Origin: a virus
IMG/VR virus record: IMGVR_UViG_3300003690_000003
Coordinates: 64,001 to 128,000 of that record
DNA: 64,000 nt
Strand: one strand, 5' to 3'
A model generated the notes under the pieces. That model worked only from the letters and a program-made list of their open reading frames with translations. It was not told the DNA's origin and searched no databases. The position numbers and the translations under genes were made by a program. Positions 6,458 to 62,282 of the stretch are shown here, piece after piece; position 1 is the stretch's first letter, and each line of letters begins with the position of its first letter.

Positions 6458-9451
6458 TTAGTCATCGAACGATGCTCCGGTTCTGGTAATAACAAAGTCC
6501 AGAGCTATAAACTCGATCGCACGCGTGGGCTTCAAAAAGACCTTAGCATACATGATATTTCTATCAACGAGCTCGGGGGTAGTTGTGGTATCATCAAGAA
6601 TGACACGATACTCTGCCAAACCATATCGGTTCTTCACAGCCATTAAAAGAGGCTCTACCTGGCCCAAGAAACGATCCCAAGTTACTTGAATATTGGGATC
6701 AAACAAGATTCTAGTTGAAATTCTAGAAATCGACTTCTTGAGGAAGATAAGCAGTCGACGAACATTAATCCGATCAAGTGCAGACGGTGTCGCCTGCAGA
6801 GTCTTCTGCCCGAAGACCACAATGCCTTCAGCCGGGAAACTCGCAATGGGATTAATATTACGCTCATACAGCTGGTCACGTTGCTTGCTCGTTAATCGAT
6901 CAACAACGTTAGTTACCGGCATGCCCGCCGCACCTTGACTAAGGCCCCCGCGGTTGAAGCCGGCAGGAGCAAACCACAGCTCAGAAACAGCCTCAGAACT
7001 TGCGTACGTGCCTAGAGCGGCCACAGAAGGTGGCACCCATACACGTTGACCCGTTAGGGTATCGCGCACTTGTACCCAAGGATAGTAACATGCTCCATAA
7101 CTATTGTTGAAAGCGCGCTGTTTAATATACGTAACAGTGTTACTAACATTTCCGGCTCTACTAGAGAATGCATCGGTGTTTTCTGCAGCTGGCAAAAAGC
7201 CACCTTCAAGATCGATAATCGCTAGTGTGTCGGCCCGGGCTTCCGCAACCGTAAGCATATGACTAGTAAGAGTCCGCGCAGTCATGCCGGGAACTGTCAG
7301 GAGATTAATGTCTACCTGGTCAGGATCCCCAACCGCGTCGACACCCCGCTGTGCAGTATAAAGCATAGCGTAGTTGTTTACGCTTCTTGTCTCGCCTGCG
7401 CCTCCTAGAGCGCGCGTGTTGTTGAACGGATCAGCTTCACCAATATCGAAGCCATCAAAACCGCCGGCCATGGGCACTACAAATCGATTATAATCGAGAT
7501 CTAGAACAGCCTCATACGAAGCGCTGACCGCGGTAATAGAAGTGCCTTTCCTTCGGGCGCCCTGGTGTGTACCGGGCGAGGACTCAATATATCCAAAGCC
7601 AGAGCCACTGTGAAACGCAGCATCCTGAGCACCGTTTAATACCAAGTTATCTAAAGAGAAGCCAGGTCCTCTCTCTGAAGGCCCCGTGGCAGGGGGATTG
7701 AGGCGGTTTAAAGAGGGGGGAGGCATGCGAACCAAGTCCACAATCGTTTTGTCCGGCACCAAAGATGTCCGCGTTGTCGTAGTCTGAAGTCCGAAGTAGG
7801 CGTCAGTGTCTAGAGACAAACCACCGTCAGAGGAAGACAGACGTAAAGGTAGCATTGGAAACTGTAGCGAAGCAGTTAGGGCAGCCGGGCCCATGTCGAC
7901 AACGGGGCCGCCGTCGCTTCGGATGTAGATAGGAGTGGCACCAAAAGATGAACTCATAATACTTCCACTACCCGCTGCAACACAATTAGTGTTGGTGGTG
8001 GCCACGCCGGCGGCGAGGTTGCCGGTTAGCGACAATGCCAAAAAGTTGGCCGAGCCTGAAATAATATTAAAGCCCTTATACTTTGGAACACCCTTAAAGC
8101 CGAAGGGGAGCCAGTCTTTGCCGGCTCGTCCCTGAGCGACATCAATATTCATATCCAGTCGAATATAGCGCGATTGATTGTCATATTCCCCGTAATAACG
8201 GAACTTCTTATTGGTACTATCCCAACTAGAATACTGATCACCGATTCGGCGCGCGATATAGTTAGGAGAATTAACATTAATATTAAGATTATTATATTCT
8301 TCGAGGACTATTGGATTATTATCCGTATCCTCCATGCGACGTATCTGAAGTGTGAAAGAGCCATAAGGTTCAAAAGAAGGGCTCATAGATGGCTTTATAT
8401 CTTTAAAGGCTATCTTAAGATGACTCTGGGCCCACTCAGCTTCATCGCGTGCTACCACACTAAACATTTCGCGAACACTTGTATTAATATTAAAGCTGCC
8501 ACTGGGACCTGGGTCTTGAGCAATGATCGGAGGAGTCTGCGGGATTTTATAAGTTGTTTGGAAAGCTGCCATGTTGGCTCGGGTACCTGAGAGCGAACCA
8601 CTTAGGCCTAGGATTACTCCATACTTGGCCTGGGTGGCACTAAAGCGGTCGCGAATAGTTCGATCAAAGGTTTCTCCTAGGAAATAGTACTCTAGACTGG
8701 AAGTCGTAGTAATAGCGTCGTTAACAAGCTGCGGATTTGTATTGAAAACCTTTCGAATATAACGCGAGCTAGTCTTATCAAAGTTAAACGAAGATTCTAC
8801 TTGTAGAGCACCCCCTATTGAAATTCTTATTTTTAGTTCTCCGTCAGTGGCACCACCAAGTGAGTTTAGCACTATCGCATTACCGGCAATCTCGGCGCCG
8901 TCGGCCCCCTCACTAGCGCGGGCTCCAACTAAAGCGATTCTGGCAGACGAACTAAGATAGAAAACTGCGGCCAAAGAACCCGTTAGTGCCGCGGAAGAGC
9001 CCGGTGTGGTGGGAGTGGAACCTGAACTAAATATAAATAGTCCATAAGGACCTCCTTTGGTGTCCTGTACAACTTCGGGATATATCCATCCCGGCTTTGA
9101 TACATTGCTGTCGTCGCCGGCGACCGGGCTTTGCTCACCAAGAAGTCTCACGATTGTGGCCGGCCCATTATTGGCTAAATAGGCCTGCGCGGCAAAGCCT
9201 GCGTACGTCGGAGCGGCACGATTGCCGTCTCTCCAAACATCGCCGGAACCACCACCGGCTATCGGGTTTCCAAAAATTTGAACAAACTCGTCAAACGAGT
9301 TAACCGTTGTTGGTACAAACGCGGGGCCGCGTGCTGTACGTCCGACAATGGCCGGGCCCGTCCGTACCACAGTTTGCTGAGGTACTTGGGATTGATCGAT
9401 TTCATTAATGAAAACACCGGGCGAAACGAATCTAAATCTATCTACAGACAT
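6458..9451 (-). CDS. Contractile tail sheath protein (gp18-like)
   Basis: SPGVFINEIDQS N-terminus; WFAPAGFNRG, INPIASFP, GQKTLQ, LDRINVRRLL, KPTRAIEFIALDF C-terminal core. Confidence 0.95.
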   Translation of the reverse strand: MSVDRFRFVSPGVFINEIDQSQVPQQTVVRTGPAIVGRTARGPAFVPTTVNSFDEFVQIFGNPIAGGGSGDVWRDGNRAAPTYAGFAAQAYLANNGPATIVRLLGEQSPVAGDDSNVSKPGWIYPEVVQDTKGGPYGLFIFSSGSTPTTPGSSAALTGSLAAVFYLSSSARIALVGARASEGADGAEIAGNAIVLNSLGGATDGELKIRISIGGALQVESSFNFDKTSSRYIRKVFNTNPQLVNDAITTTSSLEYYFLGETFDRTIRDRFSATQAKYGVILGLSGSLSGTRANMAAFQTTYKIPQTPPIIAQDPGPSGSFNINTSVREMFSVVARDEAEWAQSHLKIAFKDIKPSMSPSFEPYGSFTLQIRRMEDTDNNPIVLEEYNNLNINVNSPNYIARRIGDQYSSWDSTNKKFRYYGEYDNQSRYIRLDMNIDVAQGRAGKDWLPFGFKGVPKYKGFNIISGSANFLALSLTGNLAAGVATTNTNCVAAGSGSIMSSSFGATPIYIRSDGGPVVDMGPAALTASLQFPMLPLRLSSSDGGLSLDTDAYFGLQTTTTRTSLVPDKTIVDLVRMPPPSLNRLNPPATGPSERGPGFSLDNLVLNGAQDAAFHSGSGFGYIESSPGTHQGARRKGTSITAVSASYEAVLDLDYNRFVVPMAGGFDGFDIGEADPFNNTRALGGAGETRSVNNYAMLYTAQRGVDAVGDPDQVDINLLTVPGMTARTLTSHMLTVAEARADTLAIIDLEGGFLPAAENTDAFSSRAGNVSNTVTYIKQRAFNNSYGACYYPWVQVRDTLTGQRVWVPPSVAALGTYASSEAVSELWFAPAGFNRGGLSQGAAGMPVTNVVDRLTSKQRDQLYERNINPIASFPAEGIVVFGQKTLQATPSALDRINVRRLLIFLKKSISRISTRILFDPNIQVTWDRFLGQVEPLLMAVKNRYGLAEYRVILDDTTTTPELVDRNIMYAKVFLKPTRAIEFIALDFVITRTGASFDD

Positions 9452-9511
9452 TACTTGGCATCTCCTTCATCAAAAAAATTAAACACTTAATTTTTCGCAA
9501 GTTTTCTTAAG

Positions 9512-9519
9512 TAAATAGT
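9512..9519 (-). promoter_or_regulatory. Late-promoter-like motif ACTATTTA upstream of sheath gene
   Basis: Recurrent motif. Confidence 0.55.
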
Positions 9520-9550
9520 AAAGGGAAGCGGCAAAGTCCAACTATTATTA

Positions 9551-10495
9551 CTATTCTCGATAAAATCCCTGCTTCCCTAGGTATTCGTCGATATCCCCTA
9601 ATACTACGTGCTCGCGAGGAATTCTAACCTCGACTGCGTTTTCCCTAATTACAACCTTTGGTCGATCATCGTTGGGACCATCTCCAATAAGGTACCCCAT
9701 TACCTCCATGGTAATAGATGTTTCATAAAGCCGAAGCTCCATTTCAAGCTGCCCGGTATTAGAATTATTAGTGAAACTGCCATTAATAAACGCTTCAAAC
9801 TTGTGGCCGTCACGCTCAAGTCGCCGGGGCATGCTATTAAGACCTCCCTGCCGTAAGAGAGGAGTTGTCAAATCATTCATTTGTTGCTGATATTCAGTCC
9901 GAATACTGATTTCATAAGAAACCGATATCCACACTGGCAGCGGTATTGTTATAGTTTCAAATACAGTCTTCTCATCAACAATTTTGGGAAAAGTGTTCTG
10001 ACCGAACCCTTGACCACTTATGGCACCATTAGCATATTTTCTTCTAGAAATATTATTTTGGAACTCAGCGGTTTTTTTCTGATTTATCCGACGGGCAATT
10101 GTAATAGTGCCCCCTTTTGCATCATTAACAATTGGAATATTGGCATATGGAATAATTCGTTTAGACAATTCCTTGCTAACAGATCTTCTCTCTAAAGTGA
10201 TTAAAGGCAAGATTAGAGTTTCTTCAGGGTCTCGAAGATCTCGATTTTCTTTTATTTGGAAGGCACGTTCAGTGCCCACCCAGATAATAGGTACCTTCTT
10301 AAAGCCCTTATTGGTCATCGTTGACAAATCAAGTCTGTCGTTTATATAATCGAAGACAGCAAAATCTATAGTTTCCAAAGTCGATGGCATTATTTCTATT
10401 TCTTTTAAAATAGAAGGATTTTTTACGCCTGTCCAATCATTCTTTTTTGGATTCTCAATCTGCTGTTGACTTTCGATAGAACGACTACGTGGCAT
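9551..10495 (-). CDS. Tail terminator / sheath stabiliser (gp15-like)
   Basis: Between neck and sheath genes; KVPIIW, LILPLITLER, ISVSYEISIRTEYQQQMN; start reassigned to ATG 10495 with GAGG. Confidence 0.6.
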   Translation of the reverse strand: MPRSRSIESQQQIENPKKNDWTGVKNPSILKEIEIMPSTLETIDFAVFDYINDRLDLSTMTNKGFKKVPIIWVGTERAFQIKENRDLRDPEETLILPLITLERRSVSKELSKRIIPYANIPIVNDAKGGTITIARRINQKKTAEFQNNISRRKYANGAISGQGFGQNTFPKIVDEKTVFETITIPLPVWISVSYEISIRTEYQQQMNDLTTPLLRQGGLNSMPRRLERDGHKFEAFINGSFTNNSNTGQLEMELRLYETSITMEVMGYLIGDGPNDDRPKVVIRENAVEVRIPREHVVLGDIDEYLGKQGFYRE

Positions 10496-10979
10496 CGAAC
10501 TGTCCTCTGCGGGCGCGCTTACATTCAGCACTTACTTGGAACTTATGATTCACCTGGCCAAAATAGTAGCGTGTATCATTATATGTACGAACGATTTCAT
10601 ATAGTCTGTCGCCATATTGTACAAAATCACCGACGCGGACATATAAATCTTGATCTGCAGTTAATCTTTTGCGATTAAAATGAACCGTTAACTGGCTCTG
10701 ATATTCATAACTGTATTTATCGTTAGTTTGAGTGTTCTCCACTTCAACATATGCGTATACGCGAACAGGAGATAAATAAGATTTATTTATACACTCCCCG
10801 TAAAGAGAATGAAAGTCACTTTTATTAATATCAATGGGATAATAAACTATAGTTTGGCCAATCACTCTTTCAAGTAGTTCGTCATTGACCTGTTTAACTA
10901 AATCACGTTCCTTCTCCCCGAAAAACATGGGAGGAGGAGGTGCTGCAGGTTGAGACCATTTATCGTTTGGATTGCCCAT
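10485..10979 (-). CDS. Neck / head-closure protein (gp14-like)
   Basis: IGQTIVYYPID, SLYGE, VRVGDFVQY; follows gp13-like gene. Confidence 0.65.
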   Translation of the reverse strand: MGNPNDKWSQPAAPPPPMFFGEKERDLVKQVNDELLERVIGQTIVYYPIDINKSDFHSLYGECINKSYLSPVRVYAYVEVENTQTNDKYSYEYQSQLTVHFNRKRLTADQDLYVRVGDFVQYGDRLYEIVRTYNDTRYYFGQVNHKFQVSAECKRARRGQFDAT

Positions 10980-10983
10980 CTAA

Positions 10984-12249
10984 CTATCCTACGTAGATGC
11001 CCGCGGGGATATCGGACAAAACTTTTTCCGCATTATCTGAAAGGATACCGTCCTGTTCTGACAACTTGGGATATGTGAGCTCATCAAAAGTAGTTTTCAG
11101 CTCTTCTCTTAGAGCATCCTGCTCTGCTTTAGCTTGTGAGAGTAAATCGGCCGAGTTCAATGTAACAGATTCGCCAGGTATAGGAATAGTAGCAAACTTT
11201 CCACGAATTTGCCCGAGCATTTCTTTTGCCAGTGCTAATGCGAAACGACGAATCCACTGCTTTCCAATCGAATTAATACTATTATAGGCAATATTTTGAA
11301 AAGGTAACGTGTTCATGTTATTAATGCCCTGAACACCCGATCTTCCGGTAGCTTCAGATTCCTCCCATGGGTTTTCTTCAATGGTAAACTGGAACCAATA
11401 TTTGTCCGGGCTGTTCTGGTTCGGGGTAGGATGAATTCTTAGTCTGTTATTTTTAATCTCGTAAGACCAATGGGAAACGCGTGTATTTAAAGCATCTTCA
11501 TATGCCATTGATTGAAGCTTATTTTGCCATACTGGAACAATATCAAATGTTGAATCGTCTGCATATTGTCCGTAGGTACGCAGATTACCCACGACACTGA
11601 AACCACCATAATAACCATAAAATCGCCACATCGCTTGGGGAGTTTTATAAAATACTCTTCGAATAGTAATCCTTCTATTGCCAACTTTGCCATAATAACG
11701 AGCGGTGGTATCCGTCGCCGCTGATGAAGAAATGATACTTTGTAGATCGTAATCGCATACGCTACTCGTAGTAACTACAGAGCCTGAATAGATATTTTGT
11801 GTACCGCCCACGACGGTGTCAGTAGACGCCCTGTCACCAACTCGTTTTAAATAGCCATAATCAAACTTTGGATATCTTAATTCTATTTGTGAACCCGACA
11901 AAGAATCCCCACTTTTGACTTGACCATCCTGATCAAAGGACGCGGTGGTATGCCCCAAAAAGCTAGAGAGGGAATTTTTTGATTGATGAACATTAACTAT
12001 ATAAGAATATTCTAAAACAGCTTCTTCATAGGCCGAATATACATTTCCCGGCGCTAGTTCAATATCTAAAACATCTCCCCCAAGTTTTTTATATGTATAA
12101 GCTACTTGGTCTGCAGCTCCAGATAAAAAATCTGTTGAGCTAGCATAAATTCCAAAGGGAAGCGTGGCAGCTACGCCGCCGGCGGTTCCAGTAACCGGTA
12201 AGACATTCGTATTTGTAGTCGACGCTGGGTATAATTTCGGAAGAGCCAT
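10984..12249 (-). CDS. Neck / head-tail adaptor (gp13-like)
   Basis: KKLGGDVLDIEL, QWIRRFALALAKEMLGQIRGKF, IPGESVTLN. Confidence 0.8.
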   Translation of the reverse strand: MALPKLYPASTTNTNVLPVTGTAGGVAATLPFGIYASSTDFLSGAADQVAYTYKKLGGDVLDIELAPGNVYSAYEEAVLEYSYIVNVHQSKNSLSSFLGHTTASFDQDGQVKSGDSLSGSQIELRYPKFDYGYLKRVGDRASTDTVVGGTQNIYSGSVVTTSSVCDYDLQSIISSSAATDTTARYYGKVGNRRITIRRVFYKTPQAMWRFYGYYGGFSVVGNLRTYGQYADDSTFDIVPVWQNKLQSMAYEDALNTRVSHWSYEIKNNRLRIHPTPNQNSPDKYWFQFTIEENPWEESEATGRSGVQGINNMNTLPFQNIAYNSINSIGKQWIRRFALALAKEMLGQIRGKFATIPIPGESVTLNSADLLSQAKAEQDALREELKTTFDELTYPKLSEQDGILSDNAEKVLSDIPAGIYVG

Positions 12250-12288
12250 TATTAGTCCTCGAAGTAACTAGTGGTACTATCATAAATA

Positions 12289-12319
12289 GGAAGCCCCGAC
12301 TCTATGAGCCGGGGCTTCC
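12289..12319 (-). terminator. Stem-loop terminator after major capsid gene, abutting CCTATTTA motif (12283-12290)
   Basis: GGAAGCCCCGGCTC-ATA-GAGTCGGGGCTTCC followed by TATTTAT on minus strand. Confidence 0.75.
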
Positions 12320-12351
12320 ACATTTATTTGTCTAATAAAAGACTAGACGTA

Positions 12352-14163
12352 TTAACCAATAGTCATATCAGCGATAACAACCAGGCCATACATGTCAGGC
12401 CGCACCATCTTCTTGGCGTAGCGGGTCATGACTCCCTTGCGGGGCACGAAGTCCTCTACTCCGAAGATAGTAGGCGTGGTCTGCAGCGGCACATAGGGAG
12501 CGTAAACATATCCGCTCTCTAGGAAGCTGCCTCCCTTGCGACCTACAAGAACTACGTTCCGTAGGAAGTAAGGATCGACATAAACGTCCCACTTCTTGGA
12601 AAGGCTACCAGCCTTCACAGATCCGACGGTACCTCGCTCACTATCGACAGTGACATTAGCGCGGAAACCAGACGTAAACTCAAGGATATTGGCAACTTCA
12701 GGTGAAACCACGATGAAGTTAGCGCCACCCCGTAGAGTCTTACGGTGGATATTCGCCGACACGTCGTTGATTGTCTCAACGAGAGTCTCATACCACTCGG
12801 AAACGTTGCCGGTGAAGTCCGGAGCAACAGTATTAGCTCCGACCTCAGCGCCCGTAACGCGATCGAGGAACTTACCAGGAGCGCGTGACCAGTAACGAGT
12901 AGCGGCCGTGCCACCCTGAACGAGGTCCTCAAGGATCTCGCGATCAATTTCAAGAGCGATCTGCTCAGATAGAATCTGAGTAAGCTCGACCTCGGCATCC
13001 AGGTTGTGATAGGCATTAAGATCCTGTCCCAACTCTGGGGTCCACTTGGCCTTGAGCTTCTTGGTCATCGCGATAACAGCGACGGAATCGATCTTGATGT
13101 CGATTTCGGGGATGTTGGTGTTATTTTCCAATCCCCACTGCGGGTCACCAACAATCGCACCTTGTGCAAGGCTATTAGGACTATTGATGAAATCATCGTC
13201 CTCGGCCCAGCTAAGGATGTTGGCTGCGCCCGTCAAAGCGTCCGCCACGGTCGCCGCAACACCTGCGGATGACACGGCACCACCATTAGACCCGGTACCA
13301 ATAAATACCAAGTTAATAACGCTGTCACTAGAACCACTAAAACGGGTGTGACGTCGAACGAGCCGAACTGCCGAAGAGCCATTGGCTCCGATGTTCAGAC
13401 CGGTAGCGACACTCTGTGTGGAACTGGAAATCTGAATGGTTACCAAATCCTTAAGATTTAGCTGTGCAAGCGCATCGCCAGTCTTTTGGATACTCGTAAC
13501 AGCAATCTGGGTACTTCCAGACGTAAAGTCCGGATCCCAGTCGACCGCTTTCATATAAGCTAGATCGCTGGTATCACCGAAGGTGAAGTTAAAAACCGCA
13601 GCAACGTTACTAGACACATCGGTGTCGTTACAAGCAACAGAACCTGTCGGAGACGAGTAAGCGTTGTTAAGCGCGTACGGGCCTTGCTCGGCAAGTTGCA
13701 TAGCATCGGCACTCCCGAGATCAACACCACCGGTCAACTGACGACCAACGACGCCGCCACCGAAGAGTGAAGTATCTACTGGATAGCCCAAACGACCTTT
13801 TGCATTGGCGCCAGGACCAATCTCTGCCGAGACCGTAAAGTCTAGGAAGAAGATGAGACCACTAGGTAGACTCATCGGCTGAACGCTAACGAGATCGTTG
13901 GCGATCAGATTGCCGAATACACGGCGAACGAGGGGGAATGCGACAGCCGCAAAACCCTCCACATCTCCACCCGACATGGATGAAGACTCACGGAGTAACT
14001 CTTTTGCCTGGTTCTCAAGCAAGCGAGCCATCCCGTTCCGAAGATGATCAGCTTCGAGACCTTCAAGAAGACCGGTCTTTTCCCACTTAGAGATAAGAGC
14101 GTCGCCTTCCTTAGATAGGTCACGGTTAATGATACCTTCAGTTAACTTTTGTACAATAGACAT
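12352..14163 (-). CDS. Major capsid protein (gp23-like)
   Basis: PLVRRVF, VSVQPMSLPSGLIFFLD, KKLKAKWTPELGQDLNAYH, EIDREIL, GYVYAPYVPL, GVMTRYA; SD AGGAGG at 14174-14179. Confidence 0.97.
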   Translation of the reverse strand: MSIVQKLTEGIINRDLSKEGDALISKWEKTGLLEGLEADHLRNGMARLLENQAKELLRESSSMSGGDVEGFAAVAFPLVRRVFGNLIANDLVSVQPMSLPSGLIFFLDFTVSAEIGPGANAKGRLGYPVDTSLFGGGVVGRQLTGGVDLGSADAMQLAEQGPYALNNAYSSPTGSVACNDTDVSSNVAAVFNFTFGDTSDLAYMKAVDWDPDFTSGSTQIAVTSIQKTGDALAQLNLKDLVTIQISSSTQSVATGLNIGANGSSAVRLVRRHTRFSGSSDSVINLVFIGTGSNGGAVSSAGVAATVADALTGAANILSWAEDDDFINSPNSLAQGAIVGDPQWGLENNTNIPEIDIKIDSVAVIAMTKKLKAKWTPELGQDLNAYHNLDAEVELTQILSEQIALEIDREILEDLVQGGTAATRYWSRAPGKFLDRVTGAEVGANTVAPDFTGNVSEWYETLVETINDVSANIHRKTLRGGANFIVVSPEVANILEFTSGFRANVTVDSERGTVGSVKAGSLSKKWDVYVDPYFLRNVVLVGRKGGSFLESGYVYAPYVPLQTTPTIFGVEDFVPRKGVMTRYAKKMVRPDMYGLVVIADMTIG

Positions 14164-14184
14164 TTTTATATAACCTCCTATATG

Positions 14185-15216: not shown

Positions 15217-15248
15217 AAAATTACTCCTAATCTGATATGTAATCAAAA

Positions 15249-15256
15249 TAAATAGT
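15249..15256 (-). promoter_or_regulatory. Late-promoter-like motif ACTATTTA upstream of scaffold/capsid
   Basis: Recurrent motif. Confidence 0.55.
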
Positions 15257-15318
15257 TCATAAGATAGGGAAATGACTAATAGTTATTGATTAGGGTACAT
15301 ATAAAGATATATCATTCG

Positions 15319-16092: not shown

Positions 16093-16111
16093 GACTTACT
16101 AGCTCCTTATG

Positions 16112-16738: not shown

Positions 16739-16764
16739 ATTATTATAAATAGAATCTCGAATGT

Positions 16765-21043: not shown

Positions 21044-21445
21044 TTAACCGACTCCTGCTGAACCAGTCCAGTTAGATCCGCCCGGTGACATGGCACCATT
21101 ATTGATGGCTGCGGTCTCTATAAAAGTGAGTCCTGCAATAACATCGACGTCGCTAGAACCCGTAAGAAAGACTGCGGTAAGCTTTAGTTCCAGGCGCGGA
21201 CTAACTGATCCGCTATGCACTGTAAAATAGTTACTCCCGGAGGCTACGCCGGCAGCCGAAAAACCAACTTTAAGCAGCTCGTCGGTATTATTTTTTATAA
21301 TAACCCACCGCGTCACTTTAGGAAACGCTACTTCAAACGTGTCGATCGTCGCGGTGGCATCGATTCCCCCGCTCACGAAAGGCTTGCCGGAAACCTGGTA
21401 GGACCCGACGTTCATCAGACCGGCTTTATATTGAAAATTGGGCAT
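21044..21445 (-). CDS. Putative capsid decoration protein
   Basis: 133 aa; NVGSYQVSGKPF, FPKVTRWVII, LKVGFS; small beta protein in head cluster. Confidence 0.55.
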   Translation of the reverse strand: MPNFQYKAGLMNVGSYQVSGKPFVSGGIDATATIDTFEVAFPKVTRWVIIKNNTDELLKVGFSAAGVASGSNYFTVHSGSVSPRLELKLTAVFLTGSSDVDVIAGLTFIETAAINNGAMSPGGSNWTGSAGVG

Positions 21446-48429: not shown

Positions 48430-48438
48430 TAATCTTTC

Positions 48439-54400: not shown

Positions 54401-57400
54401 TTATATACTGACTTCTCTTCGTGAGCGGGATCCATATAGCCGCGAGATGAGACATCCCAGCCACCAGGAGCATTAAACCTGTTAACTATAATAGACTGGT
54501 TAGAGTTTGCGCCGGTACGCGTAGGAAGGGTATATTCTAAGTTGCCCCCCACATTTTGTGTAAGATTTCCAAAGGAAGGAGAGGTCTTTTGTATAGCACT
54601 AGCTGGGAGGCTCTCAGGGGTTCCATTATGAGCGCCCACCTCATCGATCAGCGAGTTTACACCAAGACTGTAGCTCGTTGAACCATCGGTGGCGTCATTG
54701 GCATTATCTCCGAGTTTCCACCAAGATATAAGATTTCCACTGGCGGCGGCAACAGTCTGTTTCAAATTAAGGCGCGCACCGTTATTATATATTTCGGTAA
54801 CATGATCTTGAGAAAGTTCTTTTCTCCAAACGGCAGCATCACATATATGACCGAGCCATTCATCCTGAACACCGGTGCCGCGGGCGCCTATAAAACATTC
54901 CATGCCGCTGATTTCAAGCGGAGCGCTAACAGTGTCTACCAGGTTGGTATCCAGTGTGCCATTAACATATAATTTTTGTGCACCGGTGGTGTCGCCCTCA
55001 AATGTGGCCACAATATGCATCCACACTCCCGTTGTAATCGTACTTGTATTTACTTTACCCGTATCGACGCTGCCAGCAATAGTAAACTCAAAGCGGCCCG
55101 AGTCGCCAGTATCCCAATAAAGACGTCTATCTGAATTTGAAAAATCAAAAATGCGGTCATTGTCACTAATACTAGGATCTACTTTTACCCACGCTGAAAG
55201 GCTGAATGCTTTCGCGCTGCCCCCGGCGCCGCCAATCTCCGCTGCCCAAACCGTGTCCGCCCCAATCAAAACCCTATCGTCGGTGGTCTCACCCCCAAAA
55301 TATACCGAATGAACTTCAGGAGTCTGCAGCGGGAATCGACCTCTCGTGGCCAAAGTCTCAGGATACAACGCAAAGTCAAACGACTGATCTTGGAAGAACG
55401 GATCATTAATGCTTCTTCCAGCGGTTTGTATAATCTGGTAGTTCTTCTGATAGTTTCCTATCCTGCTATGCATTATTGTCCCGGACATTCTCTGGTTCAG
55501 AGAACCGGTTGTCATCAAGATATTCTTGATATTAACTGGACGTTTGGTGCCAACATTCCTCTTAAGATTGGCTTTTGGTCGATTAAATAAGTATGGAGGG
55601 CTTACTGCCGGCGAATCTTCTTGTGGGTATTGAGGGCCTACAATACCGAGGGCGCCCACCTCGGCGTCGGTGGCGGGAGGAAAGATCCGGCCACCGGTCC
55701 AAAGTCCTAATAGAAGCTTAAATCCTTCTGCGCGGTCGTCGGCGTTATCTAAACCACCACCGAGGGGATCGCCCTCCCGATGTGGCCTTGAACTAGAAAC
55801 ATTAAGCTCAATATGACGGTGTTCGCGGCCTCCTACAAACTTCTCAGTAAAAGGTCCCTGCATTGGAACTTCATAGTCGGGCCCATAAACATCGGTATGT
55901 AGATTGGTTAACTGTACGCTTCCTGTAAATCGATTAACTATTTGGAGATTGTAACCGGTGTTAACTGATGAACTATATAAACTAAACGGCGCTATTAATT
56001 GACCGTCATTGGTTGTAAAATATGGAGAATTGGCGGGCTCTTTGTTGATAAATCCCATACCAAAGCCGAGTCTTCTCTTAACTCCCGGGTTTAAATTATC
56101 GGAAATATTTTGCCATTTCTCAACATCGTCTCCAAAAGCTAGCATTATATTAGCAGGAATATTGGTACCAGGAACTCTTGGGCCGGCTGGATATGTTGCT
56201 GCATAAACCACGTCACGCTGTTTTTTGCGAGTATAGTTTACGCCACTACGAATAGTCCGCAGCTTCTTAAAACTATTCTCTATAGTAAATCTATAAGGGG
56301 TCGATTTTTTTCTATTACGAACAGACTCTGTTGTCTTAAGAACCATAGTCCGGCTATGATTGACGCTTGCAACTGAAGAACTAACAGGATTTAATGTCGT
56401 TCCCTCCATACCGGCATATTTTGGATACCTCTCTGCCATCTGCAGCCAATAAGTTGCATTAACACTTTGTGAGAGTACTGTGGGGGGAGGCCCTGTGATA
56501 GGGGTGAGTATCGGATGGTGAGCGTACTTCCAGCCCGGGCTTAATGGAAGCACCGTTAAGAGAGGCCCGATGGGATCCGAGGGCTTCATTTCTAAAGTGG
56601 GGAACTTGTGTTGATATTTATCGCGCGCTAGTATGTGATTTTCCACCATTATTCGAATGCCATCTGCAAAATCTGCAGATGCCGGTACCAACTGTTCAAT
56701 CATCTTACCCAAAGAAGTATCAAACCATTTATAAAACTCAATATATTTATCTAAATCGGGTGTATTCTCAACGCGTTCAAAAAATAGCTCTCTCAGCTTT
56801 CCTAACCGTTTATATTGAGGACGATATTTATTAACTGGCTCTCCAATAAGATTGTTAAAATCGACAATGGAACCAAATATATTAAGCATTTCCTCTGAAA
56901 TGGTTTGATACATGCTCTTTTCGAATGCAAAAAAGAAAGTAATTGGACGTGATTCCCGTGTAAACTCAAGATCGTCTTGCGTGGTCAATACTTTAATCAT
57001 GTCTTGAGCATAAAGATTCTCGGGCAAATTCTGTTTTGCCGAAACTAAGTAATCTACGTCTACCACTTTAACAGAACTAACCGGGAATCCGTAACCTCGG
57101 CCGGTATGTTGAGCATTTAATATATTCCCTAATGCCCCGTAACGAGTAGTTTGAAGTGCTGTTGAACCAGAAGAAAAGTCTGCCACCACAAACTCTCCAG
57201 AAGCATCTGAGCCGGTTACCTGTTCAAAATCCCAGTTTAGTGCCAAAGTTTCTATTTGTGGAACTTCGAAATTGTTTTTACCATCCTGGAACACATAGGC
57301 ACTTCTGTAGGGATGCAGCGCGCCATAGTTTTTAACATCTCTTGCGTGGGCTTTAATCGCATCATTCTCTAAATAATCCAGCCAATATCTGCATGCTGCC

Positions 57401-60400
57401 ATCTTAACATCCGACTTGGCTAAAACAGATCCAGTAAAGTTCTCAACATGAGCGCCCACATATACGCGCTTTGACCCCGTCATAAAACCATCCGGAACTT
57501 CAGATTGAAGTAAAGAACCGCTTACACTAAACTCATTTAATATTACATCAGCATCATACTGCACTCCATATAGCTCAACAATCCAGCTATGCGAAGTAGC
57601 ATCGCTTCCGGTTACAAAATCCATCTCTGGATAGGTACTGGGACGTACGCGGACTGCTAACGACCATTTGCTATTATCATAAACCTGTTCAAATAACGGA
57701 CTTGTCAGGACAGAACCGGTTATACAGCCGCCAGAACTGGCGCTTAAAACGAACCTTGCATTATTATCGCCAGCCGCTCCACGTGCGACAAAGACTTGGA
57801 AGTTAGTCCTGTCAAGAGAGTTCCAAGTTGTTTCATCCGAGAAGAGTATTTCGCTATCGACTGCGGTATGAACTCCAAATATAGAGGCTGATACTTCAGT
57901 AAAGTTCTGAGTTGAATATAAATCGCTCGCTTGAGCGAACTTCTTAGGGAATAATACTTCGGCTTCTAATGTAAAAGCATAACCATTTGCGAGGAAGGCC
58001 CCCCCGGTAATATAATTTACTGAGTTGCTATTGGCGTTAGAAGCGTTTTGAAATACCAAAGAAGAAAAACGATCTGTGTGATTAAAGTCTATCAGACGAT
58101 CACGTGATTCCGCCATCGTTGTATTATCACGAAGTTCATATTCTATATTGTCTCCATATAAGCTCAGCTTAACTACTTCTTCATCTATTCCAAAACAACG
58201 AACCAGATTTCTAAAACTTTTTTCAGTTCCCTTGGACTTATAAATGTGAATCAGATTATTATAAATGTTCTGATATATCATACTCTTAATGTCAGTAAGA
58301 GATTTTACAAAAAGCCTATCTTCGCTTCTATCGGCTAGCTTTTCTAAAACGTCTGCGTCTAGAAATAACTCTGGAGAGAGTAAGCCGCGCGCGTCTAAAA
58401 GTCTATTACTAAAAATATTTGGTTTGTCGGATCCGCTAACATACCCAAAATCTTTAATGGTATTAACGTTTTCTATCTGCAGTTGTAGAGAGTCAAAATA
58501 CATCGCACAAATTTGTGTTAAGTTTTTTAATTCATCGCCACCCTTAGAATCTTCTTCCTGAATCCAAGTGGGAAACATACCAAATAAAGACGAATTATTA
58601 GTATGATCGTAAACAGATCCGGAGGTTTCCAAAGAAGTTAATACGGCTTGGACCTCTGGATGTGAGGGGTACAAAATAGGATCTCGGAACTCAGTGGCTG
58701 CAGCTGAAGCCGATACAATGGCAGAGCCCGTATTTCTAATAGCGGAATAGTATGTCGCATCGCGTGTCCAGGCACCGTTGGTCACGCGGCCTGAAAAGTC
58801 TAGAATAGTTAGGTCTTTACTTTCAACCCCCGTAATACCTTCATTGAACTTATAGTATACTCCCAAATCGGTATTTGCCAGGTCAGTGTTAGTACCCCCT
58901 CCCACTTGAGTAAACCAATAACGACCAATATCCTTCGAACTTCTTTGGGTCTTCCAATAGCGAAACTCGTCTAAAGAACCAGAAAGTTTACCGGCGCCGG
59001 CGGTGACGGTCGACGGTGTCGTTGTACCCGATGGAGCAGTTCTAAGGGCGCCTATATACGCCGCCATAGAGCCGCTAACCTTGTTGAGCCCAGTGGTACC
59101 TAGCAAAAGCTGCTGTTCAAAATCGCCATCAACATAAAATCTAGAGGTGATGCCGGCAGATGCTGACTTAAAAGTAAATGCATAGTGATGCCAGTTTCCA
59201 TCAGCCACTGATGCGGCGATAAAAGTATTCGTAGGTATCAACCCAGAACTATAAGTTAAACCAGCCGGATCAAGTTGAATAGTTGGAAGAGTCGTTGTGG
59301 CCGCAGGAGTCATATGATCCGTTCCAATCTGATCATAAATTGCCGAATTTGTGTCTCTTGAGCCATCGCCCATTCGCCACCAAGAAATAATATTTGACAC
59401 GTCAGAGCGCTGGCCTAAGTTTGTTGGCTCCCCGCTGTTGTAAAGTGCAGTAACTTCGGCTGAACTTAGTACCACCTTCCAAACACTTACCTCGTCTATA
59501 TAACCGGTAAAAGCCTGATCCTTCTCTTCGTCGTTTCCTAAGAAAGCACCATAAGTAGAGATAGTACCCCAATCATTCCTGGCCGTATTATAGCTACTAT
59601 TAAGAGTCTTAACCACACCATCGACATAAACGATTGCTGTTTCTGCCGGACTCGTAGCGGCGTTTCCATCATATGTTACAACTATGTGATGCCATGTATT
59701 ATCACTAATTGCATTATTGTTAGTTCGATTATTTAAATTGGTGCCGGCGGTGTCGGCATAAACTTGAATTCTATTGGCATGACTGATGGCGACCCTAAAA
59801 TCATCATTCCCTAGGGTAAAAATCCTATCTGGTGTACTGCCGCCGCCGTCCGCGGTTTTGTATACCCAAGCCGAAAAAGTGATTCTCCTGTTCGTGAGTG
59901 CCGTATTCCATGTTCCGGCTGAGCGCGTGCCGCCCAATCTAGCCGTAATATCACTATCGCCGCTAAATAGCACCCCCTTGGGCGCTGCTGTCACAGCTGA
60001 CGCGTCCACAAAGCCCATCGTCCCGGACATCATTGTTAGAAGGAAGGGACTCGTTCCATCATCGGAACCGGTTAAATCAATTCTAAAACGACCATAATCT
60101 GCGCTTGATGAGTTGGCATAGTTCCAAAGATCAAAAATAACCTCTTTTCCGGTATTGTTAGTCGTATCAAACGCATCCTTTTTCAGCCAAAACTCTACAG
60201 ATGTCCCATTGGTTAAATCAAGTTCTAGATTTGATTCTCTATTATCCGCCGGCGACCATATATTAGCCGGAGCGGTACGAGGGACCGTGCTTTTAAGATG
60301 AGGGCCTCCGTAAAGGCTAATATATTCAAGATCTTCTGGAAGACCATAGCCATCAACTATACTTCCGTCACGATCGCCCCATCCACCATAAGAAAAGTTA

Positions 60401-60735
60401 ATATATCCTGTAGTTCGTGGATATCTCTCTTCAAAAACGTATAAATCTACATATGAAGAACTATTTTCCCAGCTAAGTCTCTCATATAAAGACCCATCAT
60501 AAGGATAGGCCTTATAAATATTTCTTACTGCGTCCCCATAATATTGTTTAGCAGACCCATATCGCGCAAAGTTTTCAGGTTTTGAATAATCAATAGGAGG
60601 TAGATAGCGGCTTTCTTTAACAATGTCTGCGTCGTGATAGTTAACTGATTCTACATCAGCGCCTACACTTTCTTCTGTTCTGTTTGTTAAAGATTTAGCA
60701 ATCGAAATCTTACTAAATAGATCTTTAAGACTCAC
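48439..60735 (-). CDS. Giant baseplate/fibre protein with multiple LamG (concanavalin A-like) domains
   Basis: 4098 aa; repeated S.S.W, W.H.V.T, Y.NG/DG, IDEV..W, W.R/KMGD motifs; baseplate-like YKSKGTEKS.RNL.RCFG. Confidence 0.8.
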   Translation of the reverse strand: MSLKDLFSKISIAKSLTNRTEESVGADVESVNYHDADIVKESRYLPPIDYSKPENFARYGSAKQYYGDAVRNIYKAYPYDGSLYERLSWENSSSYVDLYVFEERYPRTTGYINFSYGGWGDRDGSIVDGYGLPEDLEYISLYGGPHLKSTVPRTAPANIWSPADNRESNLELDLTNGTSVEFWLKKDAFDTTNNTGKEVIFDLWNYANSSSADYGRFRIDLTGSDDGTSPFLLTMMSGTMGFVDASAVTAAPKGVLFSGDSDITARLGGTRSAGTWNTALTNRRITFSAWVYKTADGGGSTPDRIFTLGNDDFRVAISHANRIQVYADTAGTNLNNRTNNNAISDNTWHHIVVTYDGNAATSPAETAIVYVDGVVKTLNSSYNTARNDWGTISTYGAFLGNDEEKDQAFTGYIDEVSVWKVVLSSAEVTALYNSGEPTNLGQRSDVSNIISWWRMGDGSRDTNSAIYDQIGTDHMTPAATTTLPTIQLDPAGLTYSSGLIPTNTFIAASVADGNWHHYAFTFKSASAGITSRFYVDGDFEQQLLLGTTGLNKVSGSMAAYIGALRTAPSGTTTPSTVTAGAGKLSGSLDEFRYWKTQRSSKDIGRYWFTQVGGGTNTDLANTDLGVYYKFNEGITGVESKDLTILDFSGRVTNGAWTRDATYYSAIRNTGSAIVSASAAATEFRDPILYPSHPEVQAVLTSLETSGSVYDHTNNSSLFGMFPTWIQEEDSKGGDELKNLTQICAMYFDSLQLQIENVNTIKDFGYVSGSDKPNIFSNRLLDARGLLSPELFLDADVLEKLADRSEDRLFVKSLTDIKSMIYQNIYNNLIHIYKSKGTEKSFRNLVRCFGIDEEVVKLSLYGDNIEYELRDNTTMAESRDRLIDFNHTDRFSSLVFQNASNANSNSVNYITGGAFLANGYAFTLEAEVLFPKKFAQASDLYSTQNFTEVSASIFGVHTAVDSEILFSDETTWNSLDRTNFQVFVARGAAGDNNARFVLSASSGGCITGSVLTSPLFEQVYDNSKWSLAVRVRPSTYPEMDFVTGSDATSHSWIVELYGVQYDADVILNEFSVSGSLLQSEVPDGFMTGSKRVYVGAHVENFTGSVLAKSDVKMAACRYWLDYLENDAIKAHARDVKNYGALHPYRSAYVFQDGKNNFEVPQIETLALNWDFEQVTGSDASGEFVVADFSSGSTALQTTRYGALGNILNAQHTGRGYGFPVSSVKVVDVDYLVSAKQNLPENLYAQDMIKVLTTQDDLEFTRESRPITFFFAFEKSMYQTISEEMLNIFGSIVDFNNLIGEPVNKYRPQYKRLGKLRELFFERVENTPDLDKYIEFYKWFDTSLGKMIEQLVPASADFADGIRIMVENHILARDKYQHKFPTLEMKPSDPIGPLLTVLPLSPGWKYAHHPILTPITGPPPTVLSQSVNATYWLQMAERYPKYAGMEGTTLNPVSSSVASVNHSRTMVLKTTESVRNRKKSTPYRFTIENSFKKLRTIRSGVNYTRKKQRDVVYAATYPAGPRVPGTNIPANIMLAFGDDVEKWQNISDNLNPGVKRRLGFGMGFINKEPANSPYFTTNDGQLIAPFSLYSSSVNTGYNLQIVNRFTGSVQLTNLHTDVYGPDYEVPMQGPFTEKFVGGREHRHIELNVSSSRPHREGDPLGGGLDNADDRAEGFKLLLGLWTGGRIFPPATDAEVGALGIVGPQYPQEDSPAVSPPYLFNRPKANLKRNVGTKRPVNIKNILMTTGSLNQRMSGTIMHSRIGNYQKNYQIIQTAGRSINDPFFQDQSFDFALYPETLATRGRFPLQTPEVHSVYFGGETTDDRVLIGADTVWAAEIGGAGGSAKAFSLSAWVKVDPSISDNDRIFDFSNSDRRLYWDTGDSGRFEFTIAGSVDTGKVNTSTITTGVWMHIVATFEGDTTGAQKLYVNGTLDTNLVDTVSAPLEISGMECFIGARGTGVQDEWLGHICDAAVWRKELSQDHVTEIYNNGARLNLKQTVAAASGNLISWWKLGDNANDATDGSTSYSLGVNSLIDEVGAHNGTPESLPASAIQKTSPSFGNLTQNVGGNLEYTLPTRTGANSNQSIIVNRFNAPGGWDVSSRGYMDPAHEEKSVYNALPWRNRGVIDYGRTGSVPGDPSISGTIHVVDQIDYARGLNQRSTLHSGRFGVEVGVAASSSASGIRKYGLTQVAYSNLPSWNKMNRNPKRVIKEAPVGAGYFNGSTSYVEAGIASDWTSLVGGLGNAALPFSVSLWLRLPTLPGSSSKVWAFGVQRYMNIYSTGLLKFFGNNSSGVTVLNATALTTNRWYHVVITYNGGSDNGGDETATIYLNGVNDNDTVANSSTSGQIIKGLTIGSRDSGTANTNAYISNFAVWSKVLAAAEVKSLYNNGVVVNIKETLPTSLQAWYRFNSYAGDTNASVDNQMGLIGSSAASASLATDLVLQHAHAPKRFEALAAGGVSWPTYQTNTYDNAYVTHQIPQSDRQYAWITGSLLPTAKVYGYDGLTSYAYLQNSSSMFFDDTNDYIDIGTAVTWNSLIGGSGTSAKPFSISLWFNSADWSSYQQLIHFGIYGRALYTNSSDGIRFQIDGSDSNGRIKTGTAYLNDNQWHHVVATFEGGDPAGVSLGGMKLYLDGVDRTTSAGFQLDNPAAIATENGTIGVELDAPGGYFDGNIDEVAIWNTELSANQAEEAYNNGTAKNFKQHSAAASLLSWYRMGDGRGDSATMIIDQIGGHNGTVNGAVASDLSIDGSRYDGPFHYKLEDQFVSASDFGCTVRGPAGGAYPLWFPLYRWGATRKTVAAGGYPFYGPNFAGLNTVLKDPLTASQNTLGFPLNTDILSTLNGQQRVKLFYPSQSDAIETQYANRNAEDFGYIEGFIYDGTGEAAAGTYGQGAGTAQMFNALMLHRNGPYGWPTFRQIQAGPHSHPLVREQRKNNRLTVRTLPTIVNRATGVRGLKGNEIVSYIEPPIGSQHKVMTHTLVSTNRVVDNDRNVTFIDQSLIYNHSFANKVDYFANIELTNRYNLKLDTKRGDLYFNRLNELLLKDTAGNTENSPFENIDKVLVNYKQTVYPAAKNAGLNRNRRRVNYSISNIWNNNRTLRGYAGSQVDLPMSPTGAALNASIWPLDGHGYPSPGTTADTNFQDTLSSNPLSGSGLLQNCFSGFDQWGEGNITASCMYTQRCMIGISGAAGDGGAPTSFNTNNPRANFPGDAEYQVAEQAGKKPYLTYDQYCENLRLIGKDYSIVPEFRISEQMDYYLNTAAEDFWAPNNSFLDLTGSSIADSSENNFFKVYSNSDFMRFFSVVDETYDNKSLVNGDIMKKDKLALRCSGLVKFLPYKGLSSSYGPFMKCTAAACGNDDEATSPDWAGGSRLPKRGGGRITSDFMETKAAFRAFVEPLAGPGILYNTIKSGIGVSNYILRSIWDGYIRDYLGHTVGRDVQYSARSQTKQIGGANCPRAGSDDFGEYYGWKGLLPLNPSASYSTLVDETGYYYYMHKLPFEALLHPVQHMSTRILAPIQVPAADDPNPAANYDNFNAGYIFDRGVGSGSISSSYGHLASNPTNPTLANCMNAVRWPGDGLKNYELAIDNFVCETVDFFQTGLKSFKSSREDQFREVKSGSVYGMKVSLNRTQQSIIGAASPAQTQLSKQVADTTIFTMYNRASGFGRPMSASFEGTANIPSWVHVTPPYYDGEAVATILFKPQYDGKPMLADIFSNSEITYQRSGEYLSPDASTNTIFLNDPDAKQRFAAMQISASVDLTREVTAIIANTTTATKRWLIQTKFETPVLNFAAVSASTPLTPTAAAHSGDLLATKGMWHQKGAICQGREGIFISLTDPGHIESSPNGDANYNVQSLLDVVGFSPVVKRIGSITDAKVVSEAVVAVPFTIALDGRRKFYRFSKHQRNGAIRILAGQQTQVQVKPDVLKICKALKDYVFPPKFDFVTTETGRETIDPFVMFVFEFTKKFSQQDLADIWQNLPPETSGESLQAREATIQHSLLAEDFFDSDQRQISEHMRWMVFKVKRRAKSNYNKYKATGLTDDLSTVPNSIDSPYTYNWPYDYFSLVELVKMDMGIQYASSESVEDVEAAQDLADQAAADAAQGALNLLG

Positions 60736-60740
60736 TTTTG

Positions 60741-62282
60741 TTACCCTTCCTCAACCCTAAACTTAAATTCTTCTGACTGTTGGACCCAGTCCTTTGATGA
60801 ATCATTATAGTAAACGAACTTTAGACCATAAGAATAGCCGCCTTCTAATAATGACATGTTTAAATCAAAATAGTTTCCTGATACATCATAAGAAAGATAA
60901 GAATATTTGGTACTGCCAGTTCCATATGGAATCACATTAAGATCGTCTACTACCCGGAAAACACGATAAGATGCGCTTACAATCGTTTCATTAGGAATAA
61001 TCGCTGTCGCTACACTATAAATGGAATCATTTATTGCCTTTGGACGTACATAAAGTCTAAACCTGGCTGTCTCACTTCGGATATAACCATCCTTAAGGTT
61101 GGATATTGCAGTTACATATTGGGTCGATGGCGCATTATCATAAGCCACAAGGGTTTTTGGAGCAACGGAGCCAGTAAAAAGTTCAGTAGTCCCATCATGC
61201 CATACATCGTAAAGCTGTGTTAAAGTACCTGTGGCGGCAAACGATGCTGAGTATATGCCGGTTTTGTACCATCCTCCAGTCACATTGATATCCAAATTGG
61301 CCGCGACATCCCCTCCAACTGGAAGTGCTAACTTAGAGCCCGCAGGGGCTGTTGAACCCGAATATAAGCTAAGCAGTATTGTTCCGGTTCCTACCGATGG
61401 AATGTCAACGAGGCGCCCTCGAACATAGTTATATAAGTATAAAGTATTAAGATTGTCTGTTGCGGTGGCTAGAGAGCTGCTATAATAAAAGCTACCGCGG
61501 TTATCTTTAACACGTGAGTCCCAGCGCGCCTCTAACACCGGGCGCTTGAAGAAAAACTCTGAAGATCTTGCAAAAAACTTTTTAGTATAGTAGGATTCAG
61601 TAGCTCCCACAGTATTTTGAATAAGGCCACCGGTTGTATTAATCCCCGTAGAACTTGAAAAATATGCTTCCTGACTAGCTGTAAGTCGCACACTGAGGCC
61701 ATAATTATCATATTCACCGCCGGACTCGCCGACTATCCAGTTTTCTACGATTTCAGAAATATCTATTTCTAGATCTTCATAGCCATTCGGGAAAGAAGCA
61801 TTATAGGTTGGAGCGCTCAAATAATCGCCACCTACCGTGGTCCACGCGCCAACCTTGCCTCTGCGCATCCAGTTCGAACCACTATTATCATAAGTGCGAT
61901 CAGTATACTCTTCCATATCTAAACCAACGCCTTCTTCCCAAGAAGATGAGATGGGTTCTATTACCAGATTAAATTGGCGAGGCAACGTATAAGCATGCCG
62001 AGCGTTATACATTCTTAGATAAAAACTTACACTCCCGCTAGCAGGAATGGTGCCCGCTGTTCGATCTGTCGAAATCGTCGACACTGGAAACTCAATTATG
62101 GTGCGTGTTAATTCTTGGGAAAGCCCATCCGATCCGGAGGCTTCACCATAAATAGAAAAAACCTCTACTACATCGGCCATTCCCATATTAGACCCCGTTC
62201 CTCTCTGACTTTCCAGCAAAGAAGACTTAAAGGCATTTGTTATAGTATTATCTTTATTAGCCGTATAACGCTTAATAGCCAT
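60741..62282 (-). CDS. Baseplate-region structural protein
   Basis: 513 aa beta-rich; SSSWEEGVG, TKKFFAR, RPVLEARWD; coupled to gp6-like gene. Confidence 0.65.
   Translation of the reverse strand: MAIKRYTANKDNTITNAFKSSLLESQRGTGSNMGMADVVEVFSIYGEASGSDGLSQELTRTIIEFPVSTISTDRTAGTIPASGSVSFYLRMYNARHAYTLPRQFNLVIEPISSSWEEGVGLDMEEYTDRTYDNSGSNWMRRGKVGAWTTVGGDYLSAPTYNASFPNGYEDLEIDISEIVENWIVGESGGEYDNYGLSVRLTASQEAYFSSSTGINTTGGLIQNTVGATESYYTKKFFARSSEFFFKRPVLEARWDSRVKDNRGSFYYSSSLATATDNLNTLYLYNYVRGRLVDIPSVGTGTILLSLYSGSTAPAGSKLALPVGGDVAANLDINVTGGWYKTGIYSASFAATGTLTQLYDVWHDGTTELFTGSVAPKTLVAYDNAPSTQYVTAISNLKDGYIRSETARFRLYVRPKAINDSIYSVATAIIPNETIVSASYRVFRVVDDLNVIPYGTGSTKYSYLSYDVSGNYFDLNMSLLEGGYSYGLKFVYYNDSSKDWVQQSEEFKFRVEEG

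Follow-up and report, generated by a model that had tools for sequence, protein, structure and literature searches.

We report a short, directional sequence tag in the outer virion proteins of a marine phage, together with a phage-encoded pair of glycosyltransferases (GTs) that probably reads it. The window, by which we mean the whole 64,000-nucleotide stretch analysed, comprises bases 64,001-128,000 of a 170,861-bp contig (IMG/VR record IMGVR_UViG_3300003690_000003; genome 94% complete) and holds the minus-strand virion operon of a T4-like myovirus, in which the tail sheath, the major capsid protein (MCP) and the neck were assigned by PHROG. The tag, phi-[S/T]-[G/A/S]-S-phi, where phi is a hydrophobic residue, is seen at the protein level in outer virion proteins, is directional and is position-labile. 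Beyond the window end, the genome carries the phage-specific gene pair GT4A-GT4B ahead of a hypervariable sugar cassette. We consider it probable that the tag is a sequon for phage-encoded protein O-glycosylation, read by a heterodimeric transferase. An earlier note on the window had proposed a virion-wide sequon of this kind; its reading has been strengthened by shuffling, by the location of the motif in insertions, by the GT and sugar genes and by co-variation with GT4B, while 'virion-wide' proved too broad.

Among cultured phages, those closest to the window phage by MCP and sheath are Flavobacterium phage immuto (vB_FspM_immuto_2-6A, Immutovirus), Microcystis phage Mel-JY01 and Rhodothermus phage RM378; two uncultured jumbo phages, LR756508 and LR756511, lie close as well. 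Both immuto and Mel-JY01 carry the motif, a syntenic GT4A-GT4B pair and a sugar cassette, their GTs being annotated just as 'glycosyltransferase'.

A directional tripeptide enriched in virion proteins

Motif counts were compared with per-protein shuffles and with shuffles confined to blocks of 20 and 50 amino acid residues (aa). Over all 43 open reading frames of the window, taken without selection, [ST][GA]S was observed 130 times as against 47 expected, and shuffling within 20-aa blocks gave 49.6±6.5 (maximum 68 in 200 shuffles); the genome outside the window held 23 as against 31 expected. Ten window proteins exceeded their own shuffles 2.7- to 8-fold. The enrichment thus persists under both global and local composition-preserving shuffles, the check that the earlier note had proposed, and local richness in Ser, Gly and Thr was ruled out as an explanation by the 20- and 50-aa block shuffles and by the LamG control described below. 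The motif occurs here as single, scattered tripeptides in no fewer than 11 proteins, and 12 motif-poor proteins of the structural operon, which include the tape measure, tube, portal, gp6-like wedge and proteins of 1191, 1319 and 2526 aa, together held 5 motifs as against 12.5 expected.

The motif is directional. TGS occurred 38 times in the enriched set, as against 5-14 times for its five permutations (SGT, 12), and the 15 to 0 ratio of TGS plus TAS over SGT plus SAT that had been read by hand in the 913-aa fibre was reproduced. A residue-preference scan of the enriched proteins found Ser and Thr about equally at position 1 (3.9-fold and 3.7-fold), with Asp and Asn not enriched there, a preference for Gly over Ala over Ser at position 2, and strictly Ser at position 3 (Thr just 1.1-fold). 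In order of strength, [ST]-G-S came before [ST]-A-S and this before SSS, and TSS was not enriched (4 as against 7.6). The hydrophobic residue that the earlier note had seen ahead of the motif is enriched at -1 (p 8e-8), where charged residues are avoided, and Pro never follows the motif. Since all six Ser codons are in use at the motif, it is a protein-level feature; with 98 distinct 9-mers at 121 sites, a DNA repeat or codon artefact was likewise ruled out.

The hand counts of the earlier note, made for SGS, TGS, SAS, TAS and SSS together, agreed closely with ours: 28 in the 913-aa fibre (noted as more than 25), 13, 12 and 8 in the 513-, 460- and 366-aa proteins, 44 in the 4098-aa protein (noted as 'many'), and 12 in the sheath, or 14 with TSS, for a noted count of about 14. 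The 1051-aa protein, primase, portal and tube had 0 each, and terminase (TSS in both cases) and the 805-aa tape measure had 2 each, as noted.

The motif occupies variable insertions and its sites turn over

Alignment of 71 MCPs, 40 sheaths and 66 necks of relatives placed the motif in variable insertions, with the conserved cores almost free of it, which bore out for sheath and capsid the clustering described from the window. The motif occupies 43 alignment columns in the MCP, 72 in the sheath and 23 in the neck while the count per protein stays similar, so individual sites come and go at a maintained motif density. Where relatives share a site, S/T and G/A/S replace one another, and near-invariant sites exist as well (MCP 173 in 64 of 71; neck 155 in 65 of 66).

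What did not stand of the earlier description was its breadth. The motif marks a subset of virion proteins and is missing from the tube, portal, tape measure, gp6-like wedge and the four LamG domains of the 4098-aa protein. These domains (796 aa) contain 0 motifs although they are richer in S, T, G and A than the rest of the protein, which contains 34; a beta-rich surface is therefore not sufficient for the motif. Residues 572-810 of the 913-aa fibre resemble the Moraxella adhesin UspA1 (E 7e-15) and are also motif-poor (3 as against 1.8 expected); perhaps the UspA1-like and LamG modules are recent imports or receptor-binding surfaces. The homologues of the 366-aa protein in Mel-JY01 are enriched too, and that in RM378 is not.

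A phage-specific GT4A-GT4B pair ahead of a variable sugar cassette

The GT and sugar-nucleotide genes that the earlier note had suggested seeking in the rest of the genome lie just outside the window: GT4A, GT4B and the cassette span 139.9-154.1 kb of the genome, 12-26 kb past the window end. By Pfam, the cassette encodes an RpiB-cytidylyltransferase, a PfkB kinase, a class II aldolase, a transaldolase, a GT4-like and GT9 fusion, a methyltransferase and a nucleotidyltransferase-kinase, to which sequence motifs add cupins, HAD phosphatases, a third GT4-like gene and a GT-A-like gene. Across 80 related loci, GT4B directly follows GT4A in all 77 with room for it, a PD-(D/E)XK nuclease gene stands upstream of the pair in 75, and the cassette downstream differs in nearly every relative. 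Genes of GT9 type and donor genes are present in just 1-17 of the 80 loci (the GT9-like gene in 12), so that none of them can be a universal reader of the motif; the GT9/heptose module was ruled out in that role.

Both GT4A and GT4B keep catalytic-type residues, and the invariant R193, K194, E280 and E288 suggest that GT4B is active. The model of GT4B is a GT-B fold (predicted local distance difference test score, pLDDT, 91.5) of two Rossmann domains with one short hairpin insert. Its nearest solved fold is chlorovirus B736L (PDB 3OY2; Z 29.5, root-mean-square deviation 3.1, 345 residues aligned; next Z 26.9), which is also, by sequence, the PDB entry matched best by GT4A and by GT4B, at 15% identity.

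A model of the GT4A-GT4B complex reached an interface score (ipSAE) of 0.86 as against 0.24 for the best control, with a partner pLDDT of 90 and at least 96% of contacts agreeing between runs; 58 of 80 solved complexes and 2 of 110 mismatched pairs reach the mark for this score, counts that are only approximate for the alignments used. In the predicted interface, residues 411-418 of GT4A pair with 248-256 of GT4B, and the model thus supports a heterodimer joined through the C-terminal strand of GT4A. The structure of the GtfA-GtfB complex has been solved, and the pass may stem from likeness to it, though sequence similarity is negligible (Gtf1, E 0.6).

In a search of 185,579 prokaryote genomes, the only full-length GT4B genes lay on phage-like contigs that had been mis-binned or adjoined an assembly gap. 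The contigs concerned (L342-L354), with the gene order PhoH-nuclease-GT4A-GT4B, had been binned in metagenome-assembled genomes labelled Pelagibacter, Thaumarchaeota, Woesearchaeota and others, and probably represent contamination; in a WOR-3 'chromosome' (L342) the GT4B piece sits after an N-gap.

Variants of the locus were also seen. GT4A is split into two genes between its Rossmann domains in Mel-JY01 (L099:33441-34932) and in genome G006 (L266:1191-2710), and many relatives (L106, L110, L112, L137, L166 and others) have a GT4B extended by a fused C-terminal domain of ~250-290 aa, giving proteins of 660-705 aa. Within the cassette, a six-gene block (RpiB-cytidylyltransferase, PfkB, AraD-like, cupin, transaldolase and HAD; genome 147188-150709, L006:4188-7709) recurs whole or nearly so in a few scattered relatives (L117, L118, L151, L168, L349), a mobile module whose product may be a heptose- or octose-type donor. 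A 244-aa HExxH protein (genome 154848-155582, L006:11848-12582) with a weak PF07737 match, below cut-off, is encoded near the PD-(D/E)XK-GT4A-GT4B genes in 73 of 80 loci.

Motif and GT4B vary together

All 80 close loci were enriched in the motif (1.9- to 5.0-fold), as were nearly all of 80 more distant loci in MCP or neck. Of the wider clade, four of four MCP-selected genomes at least 90% complete have GT4A and GT4B, as does one partial genome, and in nine long genomes selected for GT4B the sheaths hold 5-9 motifs as against 2.4-3.2 expected; all near-complete motif-positive genomes tested carry the pair. Two complete outgroup jumbo phages have neither the pair nor a motif excess (29/28 and 66/61), the same holds for LR756511 and T4, and Syn19, which is without the pair, shows just a non-directional 1.5-fold excess in its structural proteins.

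LR756508 (484 kb), together with its relative L184, is motif-negative. LR756508 has GT4A and lacks GT4B. Its GT4A stops short of the predicted docking tail, which every GT4B-bearing genome retains; GT4A itself was accordingly ruled out as the gene that tracks the motif. In a tree of motif-free MCP columns, LR756508 and L184 nest inside the motif-positive clade (100/99), and a tree with the motif-positives held together was rejected (approximately unbiased test, p 0.0002). The nesting represents one joint loss of motif and GT4B, or two gains. No clear replacement tripeptide was found in LR756508, N-x-S/T being raised in just one or two proteins, among them a 1579-aa protein (L094:22764; 25 as against 11.6 expected). 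Behind its GT4A, LR756508 keeps a run of genes (L095:25432-36500), one of which resembles a CMP-sugar synthetase by eye.

The earlier note had suggested looking for a related clade with a different tripeptide that co-varies with its GTs, and RM378 provides such a case in a single genome. It has GT4A and a barely recognisable, highly diverged GT4B (E 3e-8), and neither its sheath nor its MCP is enriched in [ST][GA]S. Among its S/T-rich proteins, T-x-S occurs 115 times as against 41 for S-x-T (42 expected), with bulky middle residues preferred and five proteins holding most of the sites, and T-x-T is not raised. This asymmetry, which came out of post hoc scanning, is absent in T4, Syn19, LR756508 and LR756511; a search for diverged relatives of RM378 found none. 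Gene p124 of RM378 (L098:32985-34136), annotated as UDP-galactopyranose mutase-like, lies among the T-x-S-rich genes. A genome-wide switch to [ST][GA]T was not found in close relatives, which form a continuum of 0.3- to 2.7-fold with no clade pattern. Long, SGS-rich repeat proteins of GTSGSS type occur in Mel-JY01 (L091:635-3052), G002 (L338-L341), L192 and L261; they resemble serine-rich repeat adhesins and could be heavily glycosylated fibres.

Alternative explanations

Might the tripeptide simply be a structural element, the end of a beta-strand or a tight turn presenting two hydroxyls on one face? It would then need no enzyme, and the GT pair would be co-inherited with it. Hydrophobic residues at -1 and +3 fit the pattern of a beta-strand, the motifs of the MCP insertion are modelled at strand ends and in hairpin loops, and both the near-invariant sites given above and the non-directional excess of Syn19 would suit such a role. 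We nonetheless regard it as unlikely, for one tag recurs across unrelated folds while its sites turn over across 43-72 columns, neither Asp and Asn at position 1 nor Thr at position 3 is enriched as expected of a turn, the orthologues of sheath, neck and capsid in T4, Syn19 and LR756508 do without the motif, as do the LamG beta-sandwiches, and the nested motif loss coincides with loss of GT4B. That last point also bears on the proposal that something else reads the tag, be it a host enzyme, a phage enzyme outside GT4 that transfers phosphate, polyol-phosphate or acyl groups, or a decoration protein or chaperone that binds without modifying. Sequence statistics show recognition, not chemistry, the cytidylyltransferase and kinase genes of the cassette could make non-sugar donors, and co-variation was examined for GT genes only. 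Such a reader is, in our estimate, no less unlikely: both motif loss and motif shift follow GT4B, no gene of a protein-kinase family was found in the genome (the control was detected), the patchy GT9-type and donor genes offer no universal reader, and the tag is common to phages with Flavobacterium and Microcystis as recorded hosts, which argues against one host enzyme.

We think it quite improbable that the GT4 pair and cassette are unrelated to the motif and act on phage DNA or on the host surface. The pair does stand behind a PD-(D/E)XK nuclease gene in most loci, and GT-B enzymes glucosylate T4-type DNA (PMC6024577). The genome, at 94% completeness, gave no match to PF12851 (the TET/JBP dioxygenase, which in that route acts alongside a cytosine methylase), with the control silent in the same search. 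On the other side, PF00303, the dCMP-hydroxymethylase/thymidylate-synthase family that would supply hydroxymethyl-pyrimidines, is absent from the genome, in a search whose control was detected in 10 of 14 cases. Immuto has an annotated 7-deazaguanine DNA-modification set and, in addition, a sugar cassette as well as the pair; an extended glycan is suggested by five or six GT domains and varied donors; and it would be left unexplained why motif and GT4B are absent together.

Several observations do weigh against O-glycosylation by the GT4A-GT4B pair. The co-variation amounts to one loss (or two gains) and one shift, the shift being seen in RM378 alone; since L184 is a fragment of 37 kb, GT4B loss is read from LR756508. 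Immuto, which has the pair, is enriched in its sheath (8 as against 2.6) and in some tail proteins, but its signal is non-directional overall (T-small-S 34, S-small-T 42), SGT being as common there as SGS. The idea that cytoplasmic proteins avoid the motif found no support, as they show no consistent avoidance (0.4- to 1.1-fold). As for surface exposure, only the sheath and MCP cores align to T4 gp18 and gp23, and it is the architecture of T4 from which the sheath and capsid insertions are taken as outward-facing; exposure of the motifs would follow from that analogy, with an MCP model that is poor overall (pLDDT 58), mostly fairly confident in the insertion, and that found weak T4 gp23 matches and nothing else in a fold search. 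A PDB search returned no virion structure from this clade. Finally, B736L has no assigned function (PMC9614988) and also scores high against the T4 DNA alpha-glucosyltransferase (PMC6024577), so the likeness of GT4B to it does not tell the acceptor, and we did not accept it as evidence for a protein acceptor.

Comparison with known glycosylation systems

A parallel in gene logic is the GtfA/GtfB O-GlcNAc system of the adhesins Fap1, GspB, PsrP and SraP, in which a conserved GT pair starts cytoplasmic Ser/Thr O-glycosylation and variable GTs then extend the chain (PMC6973325). The phage likewise has an invariably adjacent pair, a predicted heterodimer, followed by a variable cassette of putative extenders. 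It differs in that the phage pair has no Pfam match to DUF1975, the domain through which GtfA/GtfB bind partner and acceptor, that both subunits keep catalytic-type residues, where the second Gtf subunit is a non-catalytic chaperone, that similarity to Gtf1 is negligible, and that the viral sites are dispersed tripeptides in folded virion proteins and not long serine-rich repeats, the GTSGSS-type proteins of some relatives excepted. The phage pair would work like GtfA/GtfB but does not belong to that family.

In mycobacteriophages, phage-encoded GTs glycosylate capsid and tail proteins, and it is the capsid and tail-tube C-termini that are reported to bear the glycans (Freeman et al. 2023, as reported in PMC12619734); in the account given there no sequon is described. 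Here, in contrast, the tube is motif-free and many sites are internal, and a tblastn search with GT4A and GT4B (E 1e-5) matched no mycobacteriophage among 50,697 phage records. Chloroviruses and Mimiviridae glycosylate autonomously with virus-encoded soluble GTs, among them the GT4 proteins B736L/A546L, and nucleotide-sugar genes, the chlorovirus capsid glycans being N-linked (PMC9614988). The phage similarly encodes its own GTs (Pfam GT4, GT4-like and GT9) and nucleotide-sugar genes (nucleotidyltransferases, PfkB, RpiB, transaldolase, aldolase II, methyltransferase), although those viruses infect eukaryotes and their closest enzyme, B736L, is distant. The phage system probably belongs in kind with mycobacteriophage and giant-virus virion glycosylation, its enzymes not being mycobacteriophage orthologues. 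From T4 DNA glycosylation by AGT and BGT it differs in lacking the PF00303 acceptor-base gene.

Acting in the cytoplasm, the bacterial autotransporter heptosyltransferases TibC and Aah decorate beta-structured surface proteins with many sugars at short Ser motifs. The phage genome has heptose/octose-like donor genes and a GT9-like domain, but the rarity of its GT9-like gene excludes that gene as motif reader. TibC and Aah were not among the listed fold matches of GT4B, a listing that excludes nothing, no direct TibC/Aah profile search having been made. Immuto and Mel-JY01 share pair, cassette and motif with the window phage, where RM378 has T-x-S instead.

Features and coordinates

Coordinates are collected in Table 1. 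Elsewhere the genome encodes a chaperonin, ClpP, IMPDH/GMP reductase, DNA polymerase III alpha, a D12 adenine methylase and a short PolA-family protein.

Table 1. Features of the virion operon and of the GT locus. Positions are those of the window unless marked as genome; motif counts are [ST][GA]S, observed as against expected.
Feature	Position	Strand	Basis and motif content
Tail sheath, 997 aa	6458..9451	-	PHROG 23; 9 as against 2.6, all in inserted domains (residues ~140-650)
Head-tail adaptor (neck), 421 aa	10984..12249	-	PHROG; 3 motifs, sites conserved in relatives
Major capsid protein, 603 aa	12352..14163	-	PHROG; 4 (173, 215, 277, 290) as against 1.5; insertion domain ~150-345
Putative outer virion protein, 208 aa	16112..16738	-	5 as against 0.6; no family match, role inferred from position
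Putative fibre or decoration protein, 443 aa	16834..18165	-	7 as against 2.6; no family match
Fibre, 913 aa	18296..21037	-	26 as against 6.5
133-aa protein	21044..21445	-	4 as against 0.6
Putative baseplate protein, 460 aa	36269..37651	-	10 as against 1.6; paralogue of 366-aa protein
Putative baseplate protein, 366 aa	37682..38782	-	7 as against 1.2
Baseplate-associated protein, 4098 aa	48439..60735	-	34 as against 9.9, all in scaffold
513-aa protein, adjoins gp6-like wedge	60741..62282	-	10 as against 2.0
Variable glycan cassette	genome 139939-151575	-	Pfam and sequence-motif reading
GT4B, 415 aa	genome 151572-152819 (L006:8572-9819)	-	Pfam GT4; beyond window end
GT4A, 419 aa	genome 152816-154075 (L006:9816-11075)	-	Pfam GT4; beyond window end
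Chaperonin, ClpP, IMPDH/GMP reductase, Pol III alpha, D12 and PolA gene set	L002:10080-11651, L002:13603-14196, L002:16662-17696, L003:696-4136, L003:13929-14873, L003:17785-18972		

Proposed mechanism and implications

Sugar transfer, the acceptor residue, exposure of the motif and the biological role are what we infer beyond the sequence observations. In the mechanism that we propose, the soluble GT4A-GT4B pair would prime the tag in the host cytoplasm during infection, with no lipid carrier, recognising it on newly made or assembled virion proteins, and GT4B would set the peptide specificity. The first sugar would be added to one of the two hydroxyls, for which we would guess, with a slight preference, the invariant third Ser. 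The variable cassette would then make rare nucleotide sugars and extend or methylate the chain into a lineage-specific coat, which could shield the particle from proteases, grazers or sorption, or tune its binding to hosts and particles.

As to the wider proposal, the chances seem to us evenly balanced that a widespread aquatic T4-like clade encodes a heterodimeric, sequon-reading O-glycosyltransferase marking [S/T]-x-S on capsid, neck, sheath, baseplate and fibres, with a swappable cassette that builds a lineage-specific glycan (phage 'serotypes') and with the middle residue of the sequon co-evolving with GT4B. We found no paper on the motif, on virion glycans of immuto, RM378 or Mel-JY01, or on phage O-glycosylation sequons in a literature search whose coverage left most subscription journals outside. 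The three cultured phages permit a direct test, RM378 as the predicted natural specificity variant.

If the proposal is true, a very common group of aquatic phages, met as hundreds of contigs in single scans, would be glycan-coated, probably with thousands of glycan sites per particle as estimated from per-subunit counts. Its acceptor rule would be readable from sequence alone, which we have not found reported for any phage, so that outward-facing virion proteins would become predictable among hypothetical genes. A soluble, lipid-free O-glycosyltransferase with a three-residue tag would be a tool for glycoengineering, and the O-antigen-like hypervariability of the sugar cassettes in these phages would be explained.

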